A stretch of DNA of 33,646 bases from a virus (taxonomy: Duplodnaviria > Caudoviricetes): positions 1-33,646 of the IMG/VR virus record IMGVR_UViG_3300020044_007582; one strand, 5' to 3'. This document shows, in pieces, positions 585 to 33,305 of the stretch (positions are counted from its first letter, which is position 1; each line of letters starts with the position of its first letter). Below the pieces are notes generated by a model. That model ran no database searches. It was given only the letters and a program-made list of their open reading frames with translations, and was not told the origin of the DNA. The translations under genes and the position numbers were made by a program.

Positions 585-872
585 TTGACTTGTTCACACC
601 GCAGGCACATTGATGGCTGTGTGGTACGCAATAACGATCGAATCCCGTCGCAGGAAGAACTGCGAGAAGCCTTCCAGCAACTGGTCGCCGACTCGGTCGA
701 ACTGCGTCGCATCGCCGGCCTGAACATCCTTCGGGCGTCGAACATCGCCGACCAGAACGGCGACAAGCAGGTCGTGCAACTGCTCATCTCCGAGGCCAGC
801 GTGATGCTCTCGGTCGCCACGCAGATCGAATGGCTGTTCGTGCAACCAGAGGACACCGATGACAATCTATGA
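585..872 (+). CDS. Hypothetical protein (start uncertain; GTG at 621 plausible)
   Basis: Fills the gap between neighbours and overlaps the next start; helical sequence. Confidence 0.55.
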   Translation: MTCSHRRHIDGCVVRNNDRIPSQEELREAFQQLVADSVELRRIAGLNILRASNIADQNGDKQVVQLLISEASVMLSVATQIEWLFVQPEDTDDNL

Positions 873-1404
873 CGAATACCAAAGGTTCTGGAAGCGGCTC
901 TCGAAAGCGGAGCGCGAAGCCCTCACGTCGACAGGCTTCGACCCTCGTCGCCCTGACGATTCCGGGGTTCCCTATGCTCATCGTTACTTCGGAGGCGAGC
1001 CTGTCCAAGACGAAGACGGCTCCGGGCCGAAGCAAGAAGGGTACGACATTAATCGGCTGGCAGCGGTTAGATGGGAACAGCGAGAAAGGACTTGGTCGGA
1101 GATGAGCGAAAAGTTCTTCAGTCAGGACGACGTGCTGGATATCCTCCGCAAGGTGATCGCCGTCATCGACCTTTCGCCGAGTGCGGAAGTCAGGCTGCAC
1201 GGGACGTGCATCAAGCTCGCCCTCGGGATGCCTGGCCTGCCGACCATGACGGCTCTGGCCAATCAGCACAAACTCACCCGCGCTGCAATCTCCGCCCGAG
1301 TGAAGACCATCCAGCGTAACTTGAAGTTGCCTCCGTCGCTGTACATGAAGTCCGACTCCGCCTGTGCCAAGCTCTCCGTCGCCCGGAGGAAGAAACTGCG
1401 ATGA
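859..1404 (+). CDS. Putative DNA-binding regulator with C-terminal HTH (sigma region-4-like); candidate late activator
   Basis: MTALANQHKLTRAAISARVKTI resembles an HTH; lies directly upstream of terS with an ATGA overlap. Confidence 0.55.
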   Translation: MTIYDEYQRFWKRLSKAEREALTSTGFDPRRPDDSGVPYAHRYFGGEPVQDEDGSGPKQEGYDINRLAAVRWEQRERTWSEMSEKFFSQDDVLDILRKVIAVIDLSPSAEVRLHGTCIKLALGMPGLPTMTALANQHKLTRAAISARVKTIQRNLKLPPSLYMKSDSACAKLSVARRKKLR

Positions 1405-2036
1405 GCGATAAGGTTCGACCAATCGACCTCGCCGGCCGCTTCGGCGTCACCAAACAGGCCATCAACAAGTTTATCACGCAGGGGATGCCCATCGACTCCA
1501 TCGAGTCCGCCGAGGCGTGGTACATGGCACGGGGTGCCGGCCGCATGGGTTCCGCCGTGCGTCCCGACAAGGACTTCAACGAGACCGTCGAACGTCAGCG
1601 CGAACTCAAGGCTCTGGCCTATCAGCAGTACCTCGACGACCTTGCGTCGAACTCGCCCGACGCCAGCAAGTCCTACGCCACCTACGACAAGTTGGTGAAG
1701 ACGCTCGTCACGCTGGAGAAGGAACTCCAGGCACGGCAGATCGCCAGCCGGGAGTACATCCGCACCCAGACCGCCATCGAAAGGTTCGGCCGAGTGTTCG
1801 CGCAAGTCCGTGAAGAGGTCACGCAGCTCGGTACGAAACTGGCGTCGAGAGTAAACCCCGACAACCCGGGACGGGCGATGAAGGCCATCGACGACGAGGT
1901 GAAGAAGATGCTTGAGCGTCTGTCGTCCGCCGCCGGCTACGCCGAACAGGCTGTGGTCAAGGAGACGGACACCGAAGACCCCATCGAGGTTGACTCTGGC
2001 GATGAGGAAGGCGTAGATGAAGTTGAATCGACATGA
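1401..2036 (+). CDS. terS: Terminase small subunit (Nu1-like)
   Basis: N-terminal wHTH (DLAGRFGVTKQAINKFITQGMP), coiled coil and acidic tail; upstream of gpA-type TerL. Confidence 0.75.
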   Translation: MSDKVRPIDLAGRFGVTKQAINKFITQGMPIDSIESAEAWYMARGAGRMGSAVRPDKDFNETVERQRELKALAYQQYLDDLASNSPDASKSYATYDKLVKTLVTLEKELQARQIASREYIRTQTAIERFGRVFAQVREEVTQLGTKLASRVNPDNPGRAMKAIDDEVKKMLERLSSAAGYAEQAVVKETDTEDPIEVDSGDEEGVDEVEST

Positions 2037-2899
2037 GCTTCTTTGAACCGCCACCTCCCACGAAGTATAACGTCCTTAACCTTGGTGCAGGAGTACAGTC
2101 TTCGGCCTTGGCCCTGATGGCCGCTAAAGGCGAGATCGGACCGATGCCTGACTTTGCCGTGTTCGCCGATACCCAGGCGGAACCTGCTGGCGTCTACAAG
2201 TGGCTAGACTGGCTGGAGACCCAACTTCCGTTCCCGGTGATCCGTGTGACGAAGGGTAGCCTGACGGAAGAAACATTGAAGGTGCGCGTGAAGGAAAAGT
2301 CCAAGTACGGAAACGGCATCACTTATCTACGAACCAACATCCCCGTCTACGGGCTGATGCCCAACGGAGAAGTCAGGAACGCAGTCGGACGCTCTTGCAC
2401 CGCAGACTTCAAGGTCGCGCCGATCTTGAAAGAGATCCGCAAGCGTTGCGGCATCAAGCACGGCCAGAAAGAGATCACGGTCACGCAATGGCTAGGAATT
2501 TCTTACGACGAGATGCAGCGTATGAAACTTCCGTCGAACGCTTGGACGCAACACCGATGGCCATTGATTGAAAAGCGAATGACTCGATCCCATTGCAAGG
2601 ACTGGATGGAGAAGAACGGATACCCAGAGCCGCCAAGGTCGGCTTGCTACTACTGCCCGTTCCATGACGATGAGGAATGGCGTCGACTGAAGACCGAAGA
2701 CCCCGAGCATTTCCAGAAGGCCGTCGAGTTTGATAGTACTTTCAGACGACTTCAAAATGAGAACCCGGGAGGACTTCGGATCGAAGTATTTCTCCATGGT
2801 TCCTGCAAGCCTCTGGACGAGGTAGACTTTACTGACAAAGACCAACATCAACTCGGCTTTGATTTCAGCTCCGAGTGCGAGGGGATGTGCGGACTATGA
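2033..2899 (+). CDS. PAPS-reductase-like / adenine nucleotide alpha-hydrolase protein with Cys motifs
   Basis: Variant PP-loop LGAGVQS, FADTQAE, CTADFK, GISYDE, WPLIE, SACYYCPF and C-terminal CEGMCG. Confidence 0.75.
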   Translation: MSFFEPPPPTKYNVLNLGAGVQSSALALMAAKGEIGPMPDFAVFADTQAEPAGVYKWLDWLETQLPFPVIRVTKGSLTEETLKVRVKEKSKYGNGITYLRTNIPVYGLMPNGEVRNAVGRSCTADFKVAPILKEIRKRCGIKHGQKEITVTQWLGISYDEMQRMKLPSNAWTQHRWPLIEKRMTRSHCKDWMEKNGYPEPPRSACYYCPFHDDEEWRRLKTEDPEHFQKAVEFDSTFRRLQNENPGGLRIEVFLHGSCKPLDEVDFTDKDQHQLGFDFSSECEGMCGL

Positions 2900-3078
2900 G
2901 CAAAGAATTCATACTACTGGCGGCAAAACTCGCCCAAGCCGTCGTCGAAGAAAGACGCATGGCACGGATGATGTGCGAATGCCCTCCAGACGACATAGAC
3001 AAAGCTCTGGATGAGTTTGTTGAACTTTATTCAGAGATCCGTAAACAAAACAGCAAGGAACTGCCAGAGATCAAGTGA
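2896..3078 (+). CDS. Small hypothetical protein (60 aa)
   Basis: ATGA overlap with the upstream gene and GTGA overlap with terL. Confidence 0.6.
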   Translation: MSKEFILLAAKLAQAVVEERRMARMMCECPPDDIDKALDEFVELYSEIRKQNSKELPEIK

Positions 3079-4937
3079 TCATCGACCCGCACACAGTCGA
3101 TACTTTCGAGGCTCACATCCGTGCGATGATGACGCCCGACCCCGAAGGCGATATCGTGCAATGGCTGGAAGCGAACGTGCGCGAAGTCCCAGGCTCGCCG
3201 CAGCCGGGGCCGTTCCGAGTCGAGTCTACGCCGTTCCTCGCACCCATCCTCCGGGCGTTGACCGACCCCGAGATCACCACCGTCGTCGTCATGGGCGCGG
3301 TGCAGATGGGCAAGTCCTCCCTGCTGGAACTGTGGTCAACCTTCATCCCCGCACGGTCGCCTGGGCCGACGTTGCTCTTGCAGGACGTCGACGACAACGC
3401 GCAGGACTGGCAGAAGGACCGACTGCGTCCGATGTGGGATGCCACGCCGGCCACGCTGTCCAAACTGACCGACGCCGAACGCAACCAATGGAAGAAGACC
3501 CGTTTCGAGCGCAACACCGTCTGGGTGCTGGGTGCGAACAACAAGAAGAACCTCCAGCGTCGCTCAATCCGCTTCCTCGGAGGTGACGAAGTCTGGCTCT
3601 GGCCGAAGGGTCACCTGAACGAAGCACTCGCCCGTCGCACGGCGTTCATCTGGCAGGGCAAGTCGCTGCTCGTCTCGCAGGGCGGCGTCGAGGGCGACGA
3701 TATCACCGACCTGTGGAACCAGTCCGACCGCCGGGAGTGGACGTTCAAGTGTACGCAATGCGGTACGCGCCAAGCGTGGGAGTGGGAGCAGTTGATCTAC
3801 CCCGAGGACGCCAAGGAGCCGAACGGCTGGAACTTGGACAAGGTCAAGGCCGGTTGCACCTACGAGTGCAAGTCCTGCAAGCACCGCTACCGTGACTCGT
3901 TTGAAGTCCGCGCCGAGCTGAACCTGACCGGCGAGTACATCCCGATGAACCAGAACGCTCCCAAGGGCGTCGTCGGCTTCCATTGGAACTCGCTCTGTGC
4001 CCAATGGGGCTTGGACTGGGGCAAACTGGCGGAGATGGCCATCCGTGCGAAGCAGGCTTTCGAGGAACACGGTGACGAGGTCAGCCGCCGGGAGTTCAAG
4101 CAGAAGCGTCTCGCCCTCAGTTGGGCGGACGACCCGGACGACGGCGGCGGCGAAGTCATGCCGCAGGGCTACAAGATGCTCGATGAGTGGGACCAAGAGG
4201 GCTACATGGTCGACGGCAAGCTCGCCGATCCGCCCTTCAGGGACGAGTACAAGAAGGCCAAGCAGTTCGCCAAACTTCGCTTCATGGCGGTCGACGTGCA
4301 GCGTAAGGGATACTACTGGATCGTCCGGGCATGGGCGGTCGACGGCAAGTCACGCATGGTTCAATGGGGCTACGCCGACACGGAAGAACAAGTGCGCGAA
4401 GCCCAGAAGAAACTGGAGGTGCTGGACTCCTTCGTCTTCGTGGACTCGGGTGACGGCCCGAACACGGACACCGTCTACCGTATGTGCGCGAAGTTCGCCT
4501 GGAACGCCACCAAGGGGTCCGCCCAGAACGAGTTCCCTTGGCGTATCCAGACGCCCTACGGCATCAAGGTGGCCTACCGCCCCTACGCCCGTGCCAAGGT
4601 GATCCAAGTCGGCCAGACGTCCTGCAAGTTGTACCTGTTCTCCAATCTGGTCTTCAAGGACTCCATGACCCGCCTTCGCCGTGCCGGCCACCACACCTAC
4701 CCCGAGGACGCCGGCGAGGAGTACCGCAAGCAGATGCAGTCCGAGCATCGTACCCGCCAAGCCAACGGCCAAGCCATCTGGCTGCCCATTGGTGACCGTG
4801 CGAACCACTTGTGGGACGCCGAGGTCATCGGGATGCTCCCAGCCCTCATGGCCAAGCTCATCGGCCGGGGCAAGAACCGCAACGGCAAGCCCGAGGACCG
4901 AAAGCCCGACGAGAAGGCCGAGGAAGAAACCGCTTGA
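3075..4937 (+). CDS. terL: Terminase large subunit, lambda gpA family
   Basis: Walker A AVQMGKS, Walker B GGDE, CxxC...CxxC zinc ribbon, GFHWNSL, nuclease motifs AVDVQ and NHLWDAE. Confidence 0.95.
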   Translation: MIIDPHTVDTFEAHIRAMMTPDPEGDIVQWLEANVREVPGSPQPGPFRVESTPFLAPILRALTDPEITTVVVMGAVQMGKSSLLELWSTFIPARSPGPTLLLQDVDDNAQDWQKDRLRPMWDATPATLSKLTDAERNQWKKTRFERNTVWVLGANNKKNLQRRSIRFLGGDEVWLWPKGHLNEALARRTAFIWQGKSLLVSQGGVEGDDITDLWNQSDRREWTFKCTQCGTRQAWEWEQLIYPEDAKEPNGWNLDKVKAGCTYECKSCKHRYRDSFEVRAELNLTGEYIPMNQNAPKGVVGFHWNSLCAQWGLDWGKLAEMAIRAKQAFEEHGDEVSRREFKQKRLALSWADDPDDGGGEVMPQGYKMLDEWDQEGYMVDGKLADPPFRDEYKKAKQFAKLRFMAVDVQRKGYYWIVRAWAVDGKSRMVQWGYADTEEQVREAQKKLEVLDSFVFVDSGDGPNTDTVYRMCAKFAWNATKGSAQNEFPWRIQTPYGIKVAYRPYARAKVIQVGQTSCKLYLFSNLVFKDSMTRLRRAGHHTYPEDAGEEYRKQMQSEHRTRQANGQAIWLPIGDRANHLWDAEVIGMLPALMAKLIGRGKNRNGKPEDRKPDEKAEEETA

Positions 4938-4961
4938 CGACCTTCGCCTGGGTGGCACAGT
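4934..4961 (+). promoter_or_regulatory. Possible sigma70-type promoter TTGACG-N16-CACAGT with TG extension
   Basis: -35 overlaps the terL stop codon; -10 is a weak match; sits right before the structured element. Confidence 0.35.
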
Positions 4962-5043
4962 CCATGCAAGTCGTCCTGCCCTTCAGGAAAAACCACGGGT
5001 GGCTCTTGTGGATCGTTGCATGGGGGGGCAGGACGGCCCTTTT
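4962..5043 (+). ncRNA. Candidate structured small RNA between terL and the gpW-like gene
   Basis: 12-bp stem 4970-4981/5026-5037 followed by TTTT; inner hairpin 4993-5011; alternative 8-bp pairing 4962-4969/5016-5023. Confidence 0.55.
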
Positions 5044-5056
5044 ACACAGGGCTAAA
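5041..5056 (+). promoter_or_regulatory. Late motif copy 1: TTTACA-CAG-GGCTAAA
   Basis: Matches the five-copy consensus; 5 nt before ATG 5062. Confidence 0.7.
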
Positions 5057-5061
5057 CGCAA

Positions 5062-5328
5062 ATGGCGCGTCCCCAAGGTATCTTCCTTATTTTCGACATT
5101 TGCGATATCCTTGAGATCGTCGCCAAAGCGAAAGAACTCCTCAAGCAGGGGAAGACCATGATGGAGTACTCCGACTCCGGCACCAGCGTCGTCAAGGCGT
5201 TCCCCATGGACATCTCGACCGTCCTTGTGGAGGCCCGTTACGCCCTGATGGTCAAAGACCCCCAGACCTACGGTGCCGTCGACCGTGTCCGGGTGATCAA
5301 TATGCTTAACAACTTCCGAGGACTCTGA
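5062..5328 (+). CDS. Head completion protein, gpW-like
   Basis: 88 aa between terL and portal as in lambda; helix-hairpin-helix pattern. Confidence 0.6.
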   Translation: MARPQGIFLIFDICDILEIVAKAKELLKQGKTMMEYSDSGTSVVKAFPMDISTVLVEARYALMVKDPQTYGAVDRVRVINMLNNFRGL

Positions 5329-19744: not shown

Positions 19745-19842
19745 CCCTGAAAGCCCCGCCACGGGTCACGCAGGGGGCTTTACAGGGGGCTAGGGTTATA
19801 ACGGCTCTCCCCTCTACCGAAAGGCACGGGGGAGTCTTCTTT
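19745..19842. terminator. Two hairpins at the convergence of the two arms (probable terminator)
   Basis: CCCTGAAAGCCCC/GGGGCTTTACAGGG, then GGCTCTCCCC/GGGGGAGTC followed by TTCTTTT. Confidence 0.6.
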
Positions 19843-21830: not shown

Positions 21831-21854
21831 GGTGGCTCTTGGACTGTTGGACTC

Positions 21855-23822: not shown

Positions 23823-23860
23823 AGGTGGCGGGTCTTTTATCCCCCCGTACCCCCTATGCG

Positions 23861-24088
23861 TCAACCGTAAAAGTACTTCATCTGGATACGCCGCCCGTCG
23901 AAGAAACGCAGACGCACCTTCTTCATCTTGCCGGCCTTATCCATCTCCATCAGCCAGACACGCGCCGTCGAAAGATGTACGCCCCACTCCTTGCCCCAAT
24001 CTTCCATCGACTTGTAACCCTTCGGCACAGGGTCGGCATGACGGGACTTTATCGCCCAGAGTTTCTTCAGGACGTCGTTGGCCTTCAT
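23861..24088 (-). CDS. Small winged-helix-like protein
   Basis: MEDWGKEWGVHLSTARVWL followed by a beta hairpin. Confidence 0.55.
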   Translation of the reverse strand: MKANDVLKKLWAIKSRHADPVPKGYKSMEDWGKEWGVHLSTARVWLMEMDKAGKMKKVRLRFFDGRRIQMKYFYG

Positions 24089-28051: not shown

Positions 28052-28101
28052 GTGCGGGTGGCGTCTCCTGTTATTGACAGTCCCGTGAGTAACACAAGCA
28101 C

Positions 28102-29516: not shown

Positions 29517-29759
29517 TTAGTTCTTCATCAGGTTTTTGTATTCGGCGACGGCGGCGCGGTCGGCGACGCCCCGGAGGTAGAGCAGTTCCTTCATCAGTTC
29601 GACGTTCTGCTCCCGCAGGTCGTTCAGCTCCAGGCGAACCTCGAAACAGTTCTGGCTCATCTGGTGGACGATCTGGGTCAACGCCTTGACCTGCTCTTCC
29701 GGGGTGCGGTCGGGCAGGGGGCGGAATTCGTGGACGGTTTCTTCGTGGGGGTGGCTCAT
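29517..29759 (-). CDS. Small coiled-coil protein (80 aa; start MSHPHE)
   Basis: ATGA overlap with the recombinase stop; heptad pattern. Confidence 0.6.
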   Translation of the reverse strand: MSHPHEETVHEFRPLPDRTPEEQVKALTQIVHQMSQNCFEVRLELNDLREQNVELMKELLYLRGVADRAAVAEYKNLMKN

Positions 29760-30950: not shown

Positions 30951-31145
30951 TTAGGAAATGATGGCCTTCCAGTTGACGAGCGAGTCCATGAAGGCTTCGA
31001 CGTCCATCTCTACCTTCAGCTCGCCTTTCGGCACCAGGCTGAAGCGGTGTTTGCCAGCGGCACGTTCCTCACGGACGATTTGCTCGGCTTGGGGGAGGTC
31101 GGCCAGTTCGGTGGCTTCGACTCGATTGTGGTATTTGATAATCAT
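30951..31145 (-). CDS. Hypothetical protein
   Basis: 64-aa ORF in operon context. Confidence 0.55.
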   Translation of the reverse strand: MIIKYHNRVEATELADLPQAEQIVREERAAGKHRFSLVPKGELKVEMDVEAFMDSLVNWKAIIS

Positions 31146-31161
31146 AACGGGTGGCTAGATT

Positions 31162-32060: not shown

Positions 32061-32474
32061 AGCCCCCCTAGGGGTACCGCCTGAAAAAACAATAGCAATG
32101 AAATATTTATACCCCAGGGGGGGGAAATCCTTCCGAAAAATAAAAGGGGCGCAAATATTTTAGGGGGTCGACGTTTTCGACGGCGTTAATACGGGCTGCC
32201 CTTCGGCCTGGTTATTAACCCCAAATCAGCCCCGCTTTAATTGGCCAATATCTTGTTAAAGCAAATCGACGGGTGATCGGCGACGTGTCGACGGGCGGAG
32301 ATTAGGTCGACATATTCTCCGCAAATTTGCGGGGAAAAGTTTACAAAAAATCCTAGGGCGCGGCCGTTTGTAGAAAAATTTTACCAGACGGGCGAAAAAA
32401 AGCTCGTCCCCCCCCGGGGGGTCAGTATGAGTCGGACCTGGTGACCCCCTAGCTTTTTGAAAATTTGAATCCTG

Positions 32475-32501
32475 TAATCATGAGTAAAGTTATCATGATT
32501 A
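32475..32501. promoter_or_regulatory. Inverted repeat TAATCATGA-N9-TCATGATTA (operator- or recombination-site-like)
   Basis: Perfect 9-bp arms, just downstream of a possible minus-strand promoter TTGCTT-N18-CATGAT (32536-32507). Confidence 0.55.
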
Positions 32502-32744
32502 GGGCAATCATGGGTCTCCGACCTTGGATTAAGCAAGGGCATAATTTCAGAGCTGGGGGCCGGATTTTTGCCCCATGTCGGCCGTAGACGATCCGCCGCG
32601 CTTAATGTCGGCGGGGCAGGGCGGCCGCCGAAGCAAAGGCCCAGGCGTAAGGGAACGGCGGCCCATGGGCGGCTTAAAAGATCAGCGGCAAGCCAGGGCA
32701 AGACGTGCTTAAATTCCGGAATATTGCCCTTAGTGGAACTAGGG

Positions 32745-32772
32745 AAAAGAAAAGCCCCGCGCTTAGCGGGGC
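32745..32772 (-). terminator. Rho-independent terminator
   Basis: Minus strand reads GCCCCGC-TAAGC-GCGGGGC-TTTTCTTTT. Confidence 0.8.
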
Positions 32773-32798
32773 CGATTAGGTCGTGACGTTTGCCGATC

Positions 32799-33305
32799 CT
32801 ATGCAACGGGCGGCGGGGGCGGCGGAATTGTTTTCAAACCTTCCGCCCTGTCTAGTAACTGGGCAAGACGGGATAAGGTTTCATTATCCAAGCGGCGGAA
32901 CAAACGCCGCACAAGCCAACCCGTTTCACCTGGATCGGTATTTCCAATTAGTTCAGTTCGGCAATCCCTTGCCAGGTCGTGCAAGTTCGCCGGAATTCCT
33001 TTTGAAACGTACAGGTCGGCGGCAATCAATTTCCGCGCTAACTTTGCTAGGCGGGGTTTATGAGCTGTCCATGGGATCAGGTCGGCGTTTATCCCGTTAG
33101 GGGTAAACTCTAACAAACGGGAAAACGGAAGTCGGTTCATGTAACCCGAGACCGTACGCCGCTTTCCGCCGCTGTAGATCTGAACCGAAGCGGGGCAGGT
33201 ATGCCCTGCGTAACCCGTACAAACGGCCGACCTAGTTACGCCGTCACGGCAAACGACCTTTAAGCGGCGGCCTGGGAAAAAAATGAAACCGTAGGGGTTA
33301 CTCAT
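32799..33305 (-). CDS. Hypothetical early protein
   Basis: ATG 33305 overlaps the upstream gene end; followed by a terminator. Confidence 0.6.
   Translation of the reverse strand: MSNPYGFIFFPGRRLKVVCRDGVTRSAVCTGYAGHTCPASVQIYSGGKRRTVSGYMNRLPFSRLLEFTPNGINADLIPWTAHKPRLAKLARKLIAADLYVSKGIPANLHDLARDCRTELIGNTDPGETGWLVRRLFRRLDNETLSRLAQLLDRAEGLKTIPPPPPPVA

Follow-up and report, generated by a model that had tools for sequence, protein, structure and literature searches.

Background

The 33.6-kb phage record examined here (IMG/VR record IMGVR_UViG_3300020044_007582; "the window" denotes this whole stretch of 33,646 nucleotides) raises the question of what the short gap behind its terminase large subunit gene encodes, and whether the product acts on the early genes of the same phage. 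An initial annotation of the window had proposed that the gap (4962-5043) produces a small RNA, made together with the late genes, the loop of which is antisense to the start regions of five early or replication genes on the opposite strand. Most known phage antisense RNAs either govern a single operon or act on host genes by way of Hfq. The arrangement of the window is as follows.

Head module, lambda-like, plus strand: gpA-type terminase (3075-4937), lambda-family portal and S49 protease
3075-4937, plus strand: terminase large subunit (terL, gpA type), the neighbour 5' of the RNA element
5062-5328, plus strand: 88-aa gene that precedes the lambda-family portal and is kept in relatives
Replication arm, minus strand: primase-helicase, methylases, SF2 helicase, exonuclease, RecT-like protein and resolvase

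The 88-aa gene (5062-5328) gave no match in a family search, and "gpW" is used for it as a positional label only. Gene starts throughout are those of the simple codon-scoring caller of this analysis, and some of them are misplaced.

Judged from sequence, the phage belongs to an uncultured freshwater family that keeps a folded element behind the terminase gene. Among the cultured-phage matches listed, the best E-value was that of Verrucomicrobia phage P8625 (25%). A related phage contig, with a terminase 70% identical to that of the query clade, was found in an Opitutia genome bin; thus, the host is likely to be a member of the Opitutia. Neither a tyrosine integrase (PF00589) nor an HTH_3 repressor (PF01381) was found in any of five complete relatives, in a test that covered these two families only and leaves other types possible. 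The group is apparently lytic.

Two other features of the window were recorded. A PAPS-reductase-like gene (2033-2899, plus strand) lies between terS and terL; it occurs in G001 and is absent from G002 and G004. At the head of the early arm, about 1.2 kb (32100-33300) has no called gene and contains AT-rich and G/C-run patches; it is possibly an origin or control region.

In the present study, we found that the terL-gpW gap carries a conserved and covarying predicted stem-loop, the loop of which is complementary to a tag, GCCACC, at the starts of early genes. We then considered how an RNA from this gap might act.

Results and discussion

Fold and conservation of the element

The predicted fold of 4962-5043 has an energy of -38.5 kcal/mol (z -2.95), and 2 of 200 shuffled sequences were equally stable. 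Its parts are listed below.

4970-4984 / 5023-5037 (span 4970-5037), plus strand: closing stem; of 13 pairs counted in 41 sequences, 12 vary on both sides
4993-5011, plus strand: inner hairpin, with the seed GGUGGCUCUU at 4998-5007 and the loop UGGCU
4968-5040, plus strand: predicted small RNA of about 73 nt, both ends being predicted

The 12-bp closing stem described earlier (4970-4981/5026-5037) is present but is only the outer part of this longer stem, and the inner hairpin was recovered by the fold exactly as annotated. The weak top and loop of the hairpin had been read together as the seed. Hairpin and seed hold, but only UGGCU is predicted to be unpaired; the flanking G's are in weak top pairs, the opening of which costs about 5 kcal/mol.

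Terminase searches gave 132 loci with a downstream gene, many of which are repeat listings of one contig, and these represent 58 distinct versions. The element is present in the 58 versions, in relatives down to about 62% terminase identity. In the closing stem, in addition to the two-sided changes listed above, 96.6% of cells are paired (41 of the 58 versions). None of 500 shuffles reached the overall alignment score, and pairing in slid controls was 38-53%; since the structure comes from the window itself and the sequences share ancestry, these control fractions are not probabilities. Conservation of the structure in relatives, which a functional RNA at this locus would lead one to expect, is thus observed. 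The stem sequence varies freely, and GGUGGC stays in the loop of 52 of the 58 versions. Loops are wholly changed in three clades (L052, L059, and L090).

An Rfam search over the window returned no hit at the gathering score and, within 4800-5200, only a chance hit to a snoRNA (E 3.6); the element matches no known family there. A covariance model built from our alignment gave one strong hit per phage record, including clades outside its training set. The same model found no match in phage P8625 and nothing at E below 0.8 in five loci with 38-41% terminase identity. Over 41 genomes, searched for hosts and distant homologues, its hits were limited to the phage contig and a plain hairpin that is repeated. 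The latter consists, in L394 (G051), of two GC-rich plain hairpins 112 nt apart (1389-1443 and 1501-1555), which match the closing stem of the model only. At another locus, L179 from an Akkermansiaceae genome bin, the terminase is a distant homologue, and a 150-aa ORF starts 47 nt past its stop at 2634; the first half of this ORF looks almost identical to eukaryotic ubiquitin.

Among 24 runs listed, 8 RNA runs were compared, all as assembled contigs, and 3 of the 8 cover the element within longer pieces; such contigs lack ends and strand information. In three RNA runs, contig edges fall at window positions 5073-5078, just inside the gene after the late motif described below, which is a weak hint of a late transcript start.

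Ends of the predicted RNA

The sequences around the stem suggest how the ends of the RNA may be formed.

4934-4939, plus strand: TTGACG, the predicted -35 hexamer of a promoter for the RNA itself, overlapping the terL stop codon
4956-4961, plus strand: predicted weak -10 hexamer (CACAGT), with the NANNNT spacing seen in the versions
5041-5056, plus strand: late-gene motif TTKAC-N4-GGCWA, before gpW and separate from the RNA

TTGAC lies 34-38 nt from the stem start in all 58 versions, as determined by a script that required the presence of TTGAC and not its distance. It is on the terL stop codon in one clade and within terL codons in another; as the distance is fixed despite the differing context, the promoter appears to be tied to the RNA. 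NANNNT occurs with a 16-nt spacer in 45 of the 58 versions and a 17-nt spacer in 7, and in 4 or fewer at any other spacer from 12 to 22. A generic scanner called neither a promoter nor a terminator for the RNA. The RNA is predicted to have its own sigma-70-type promoter, from which it would start near 4968. This promoter shares its build with the predicted early promoters, so the proposal that the RNA is made with the late genes is unsupported. A second GGGTGGC copy (4950-4956), located in the spacer of the RNA's own promoter, is lost in close relatives and is probably due to chance.

The TTTT noted after the stem is present at 5040-5043. It begins 2 nt past the stem and forms the start of the repeated late motif, and its reading as part of a terminator was abandoned. 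A classical terminator was rejected because the 8 nt after the stem contain only 2-5 U in all 58 versions and none was called. Since a classical terminator is missing and the T's belong to the late motif, the 3' end of the RNA is likely to be set by trimming to the stem.

The late motif TTKAC-N4-GGCWA occurs on the plus strand of the window at 5041, 7997, 9516, 11272, and 16429, with a variant at 19779. In the records tested, there are 99 plus-strand copies against 1 minus-strand copy, and they stand 5-17 nt before late-gene starts. The motif is likely a non-sigma-70 late promoter or an activator site. A 181-aa gene just 5' of terS (859-1404, plus strand) has sigma-70 region 4 / GerE as its nearest named Atlas clusters (score 0.76), and it is a candidate for the late activator that recognizes the motif, as a lead only.

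Predicted target sites in the window

All five matches to the seed proposed earlier were found at the annotated places, in minus-strand genes. Two of them coincide with predicted early promoters, designated P1 and P3.

21831-21841, minus strand: primase-helicase tag, an 11-nt match abutting the ATG
23823-23864, minus strand: P1, a predicted early promoter whose -35 is at 23864-23859; its tag falls at about +1 and precedes the ATG of the short methylase (23822)
23824-23829, minus strand: short methylase match, 6 nt plus a G-U pair
28055-28097, minus strand: P3, likewise a predicted early promoter (-35 at 28097-28092); its tag falls at about +1 and precedes the ATG of the SF2 helicase (28051)
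28055-28062, minus strand: SF2 helicase match, 8 nt
29749-29757, minus strand: 9-nt target over codons 1-4 of an 80-aa gene starting at 29759
31147-31156, minus strand: 10-nt target before a 64-aa gene at 31145, just past the resolvase stop

The match at 29749-29757 could come partly from protein constraint, and by eye a promoter for the 31145 gene is possible inside the 3' end of the resolvase gene. P1 and its tag form a fixed module, and the gene that comes next differs among relatives: it may be a methylase of either of two kinds, a gene of 70-96 aa, or even the primase. The module retains the tag in each case.

Enrichment and placement of the tag

In the early (minus-strand) arm of the window, 5 of 14 GCCACC sites are within -20 to +15 of a called start, a zone that holds 6.7% of positions (p=0.0016); the count of 5 in 14 made earlier by eye is therefore correct. 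GCCACC ranks first among 4096 hexamers in the 22 start regions of the window alone (5 seen, 0.36 expected). In 19 records, L190 being left out, proximity to a start was found for 34 of 130 sites in the early arm, where 6.5% would be expected, and for 2 of 160 in the late arm. Among 220 de-duplicated early leaders, again without L190, GCCACC is likewise the top hexamer of 4096 under background models of order 0 to 3; it occurs in 19 of these leaders, with 2.1, 2.1, 2.9, and 8.3 expected under the respective models. None of 208 late leaders contains it. As the first rank survives models trained on the same early leaders, the objection that the enrichment might vanish once C-rich leader composition is modelled is answered.

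Of the 61 sites near starts, 33 have a -35-like TTG 34-38 nt upstream, and in 21 of the 61 the spacing is exactly 35 nt; elsewhere such a TTG precedes 12 of 135 sites. At P3, 19 of 20 distinct copies have GCCACC 35 or 38 nt from the -35. Hits to the P1 pattern carry the tag at the promoter in 35 of 44 cases, and 5 of the 9 misses are by eye not P1. The distance from tag to ATG varies at both promoters, from about -6 to -27. Distinct primase leaders contain GCCACC in 45 of 73 cases, in 29 of the 45 directly before the ATG (-6). These primase tags are mostly not linked to a promoter (TTGAC upstream in 9 of 45, none in 36 of 45), and the tag is present at 36 of 47 translationally uncoupled primase starts versus 8 of 25 coupled ones (p=3e-4). 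The tag is thus locked to the promoter at P1 and P3 and to the ATG at the primase, and the common denominator is the start region of the mRNA. Beyond the earlier reading, many target sites are fixed to a predicted transcription start, not to the start codon. The copy in the RNA loop is itself not a minus-strand promoter start, with TTG at 34-38 nt in 1 of 53.

We also considered GCCACC as a general signal of the host, and this was rejected. In 21 genomes searched, TTGAC-N29-33-GCCACC gave 154 matches, which is at the level of the controls (152 reversed, 195 off-distance); GCCACC occurs in 3 of 127 host leaders (rank 816), and the 16S tail is canonical. The tag appears to be phage-specific and is not enriched in the likely Opitutia host.

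Co-variation of seed and tag

If the loop reads the tag, changes in one should be accompanied by changes in the other. With G before the seed in the RNA, the base after the tag in the target is C in 28 cases, T in 5, A in 3, and G in 1; with A (G004), T in 2 and A in 1; and with U, A in 4, G in 1, C in 2, and T in 1 (ATG-abutting sites excluded, sites not de-duplicated). In the de-duplicated tests the base follows the RNA type at 18 of 42 sites (permutation p=0.005) and at 34 of 61 (p=0.001), and the control on late genes gave p=0.93; these p-values overstate independence, because the types fall on three deep clades and single tips of the terminase tree, from which G066 and G012 are missing, and only about five lineage switches are seen, counting G066.

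G066 itself has the changed seed AGUGGCUGUU, and all 18 of its called early starts lack GCCACC. Its methylase leader pairs at -14.5 kcal/mol with its own seed versus -8.6 with the window seed; its primase site does not discriminate (-11.1 with its own seed versus -10.6 and -12.8 with others). In G068, the seed is GUGGUGG and the leaders are rich in CCACCA; in this clade, the tag's G is lost at P1 and P3 while the RNA keeps the partner C. G025 is a counter-example, in which GGUGGC is kept and no tag is found at 7 called early starts, P1 included; 56 of 60 shuffled seeds pair there as well as its own. In a whole-genome seed swap, which left out records with fewer than 6 early starts, the cognate seed was usually not the best of nine, and it clearly beat shuffled seeds (3 or fewer of 60) in only 17 of 26 records. 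Seed flanks and tags thus co-vary modestly in sequence. The expected seed-target co-variation is seen in the flanking base and in G066, and not in G025 or the swap, and few lineage switches underlie it.

For the clades with wholly changed loops, L052, L059, and L090, the loop complements have the cores GCCATC, AACCAC, and ACCGCC, respectively, and pattern scans and walks gave no linkable early arm. In L190, of the L059 clade, 7 kb of partial arm contains no GCCACC, and by eye the complement of its own loop is absent at the starts listed. In the early arrays of G067, G068, and G026, 5' of a transglycosylase-like gene, small genes stand in tandem and their CCACC-rich leaders recur, as CCACCCA in G026 and as CCACCA(C) in both G067 and G068; these forms agree with the RNA flanks.

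Predicted pairing and the proposed mode of action

Nested co-folding gave about zero binding, but it cannot represent loop pairing inside a closing stem, and we therefore computed pairing energies net of opening costs. On this measure, the first four places among the 48 window starts go to four of the five targets (-13.8 to -9.4), a ranking that is partly by construction; the methylase target ranks 9 of 48, and a late holin start is 5th. The proposal of a seed with several targets is in keeping with this ranking. Hfq was not found in 26 incomplete genomes of relatives of the host, the host assignment being itself predicted, and loop pairing free of a chaperone would fit with this.

Based on these results, we consider that the gap probably encodes a separately transcribed antisense RNA of about 73 nt, which would pair with the tags, independently of Hfq and at multiple targets, and block translation of early and replication genes. 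Repression of translation is preferred because a duplex that abuts or covers the ATG most simply blocks ribosome loading. Transcription of the RNA by host RNA polymerase would begin near 4968, directed by the predicted sigma-70-type promoter, and the paired ends would keep the RNA stable. The UGGCU loop may nucleate on the tag, and opening of the weak top pairs would then extend the helix to 7-11 bp. Since the tag lies at the start of short leaders, directly precedes the ATG, or overlaps the first codons, such a duplex would occupy the ribosome footprint, and translationally coupled downstream genes would also be reduced. As the RNA accumulates, possibly aided by late read-through from terL, synthesis of primase, helicase, and methylase would be damped. 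The RNA may serve to time the early-to-late transition, to control dosage, or to exclude a related phage that infects the same cell.

A wider form of this proposal would treat the tag, placed where transcription from early promoters is predicted to begin and next to the primase start codon, as an address in RNA. One chaperone-free RNA would then be a master off-switch in place of a protein repressor, and the loop variants would be separate regulatory or exclusion types. We regard this extension as tentative, with a little less than an even chance of being right.

Alternative explanations

The pairing might be positive, with the RNA protecting early messages from decay as a cap at their 5' ends, or licensing de novo initiation. 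Locking of the P1 and P3 tags to the predicted transcription start, at an ATG distance of about -6 to -27, would suit such a role, as would the marking of uncoupled starts and the resemblance of the RNA promoter to an early promoter; the accessible part of one study describes a precedent, lambda LPR1/PreS, which activates dnaN translation (bioRxiv 10.1101/2024.10.31.621285). We nevertheless consider activation unlikely, since a duplex that abuts the primase ATG and covers codons 1-4 at 29759 is, from general knowledge, hard to reconcile with ribosome loading.

Improbable, in our view, is action on transcription, either by capture of nascent early 5' ends leading to premature termination, as with P4 CI, or as a promoter mimic like 6S RNA. 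The tight spacing between tag and -35 (exactly 35 nt in 21 of 61) and the P4 CI precedent (PMC4825925, accessible part) speak for it. Against it, the primase tags are intercistronic, Rfam gives no CI, C4, or 6S match, and the seed is in a 5-nt terminal loop and not, as a 6S-like mimic would have it, in a central bubble.

It is also quite improbable that the complementarity is incidental, with GCCACC recognized by a phage protein or enhancing translation and the stem an element for mRNA processing or stabilization. G025, tagless despite an intact seed, the energy swap that does not discriminate, and the repetition of CCACC-rich leaders in tandem early arrays are all compatible with coincidence. 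The top leader hexamer of 4096 is, however, the exact complement of the only near-invariant part of an RNA that otherwise covaries freely, G066 changes both seed and tag, the loop copy is no minus-strand promoter start (1 of 53), and the host has no such tag.

Finally, a reversed relation is very improbable, in which the structure would be a cis leader or attenuator of gpW-portal on which early 5' ends or abortive GCCACC transcripts act: the tag at about +1 of early promoters, the promoter directly 5' and the gene directly 3' of the structure, and the action of T7 phi10 abortive transcripts on terminator T-phi (PMC2952870, accessible part) would agree with it, but the complement is in the inner loop and not in the closing stem, a proper U tract is missing, gpW has its own copy of the late motif, and the ATG-locked primase tags without a -35 (36 of 45) are unexplained.

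Among these readings, we retain translational repression by a multi-target antisense RNA.

Comparison with known systems

C4 RNA forms a cloverleaf and is processed by RNase P, and 6S RNA is a long hairpin with a central bubble. The candidate RNA differs from 6S RNA in that it has no Rfam match and carries its seed in a 5-nt terminal loop.

According to the accessible text of PMC4825925, P4 CI is processed from the transcript that it controls, pairs with the flanking seqA and seqC, and terminates transcription in the lysogenic state. Like P4 CI, the candidate is a small structured phage RNA that would pair with more than one site to restrain the phage's own replication genes (PMC4825925); unlike it, as far as that text goes, the candidate comes from a distant locus on the opposite strand, has its own predicted promoter, and would address several separate leaders. 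P1/P7 C4 is likewise a trans-acting phage antisense RNA against genes of its own phage, a temperate one in which it regulates the ant antirepressor operon (PMC8201110, accessible part). The candidate shares with P4 CI and P1 C4 a loop-exposed seed pairing with more than one phage site, which here is computed only. It differs from both in that they are processed from the target transcript whereas its targets are on the opposite strand, 17-26 kb away, in that they belong to temperate phages whereas PF00589 and PF01381 are missing from the 5 complete relatives, and in the lack of an Rfam model match. The candidate RNA appears to work like P4 CI or P1 C4 and is not a member of either group.

Lambda LPR1/PreS and VP882 VpdS are, in the part of the source that is accessible (bioRxiv 10.1101/2024.10.31.621285), multi-target phage sRNAs with a seed complementary to a motif common to the targets, as predicted here. 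LPR1/PreS depends on Hfq and has mainly host mRNAs as targets (same source), whereas the motif of the candidate RNA is specific to phage early genes and Hfq was missing from the 26 incomplete host-relative genomes. With P22 sar, lambda OOP, and aQ, pairing lowers phage gene expression, and sar blocks translation initiation; each has one main target (PMC12197685, accessible part), in contrast to a 6-11-nt seed that would read a common tag. The T7 phi10/T-phi pair is similar in that a promoter-start sequence is complementary to a distant hairpin; there, pairing is at the terminator stem (PMC2952870, accessible part), whereas here it would be in the inner loop and there is no proper U tract. With respect to the usual properties of trans-encoded sRNAs, we found a conserved seed complementary to a motif common to the targets, and no intrinsic terminator with a U tract.

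In a literature search with sparse coverage of subscription papers, no description of the candidate RNA, or of a regulator of early genes through a common tag, was found. The seed was not found in three of the six text supplements of an IMG/VR survey of structured RNAs (PMC10690425), which could list the bare structure.

Conclusions

If the proposed reading is true, one RNA reading a common tag in an apparently lytic phage would be a master regulator at the level of RNA, and the system would offer a direct test of early-gene shut-down in small phages without a recognizable repressor. The natural loop variants would serve as ready-made compensatory pairs for such a test.
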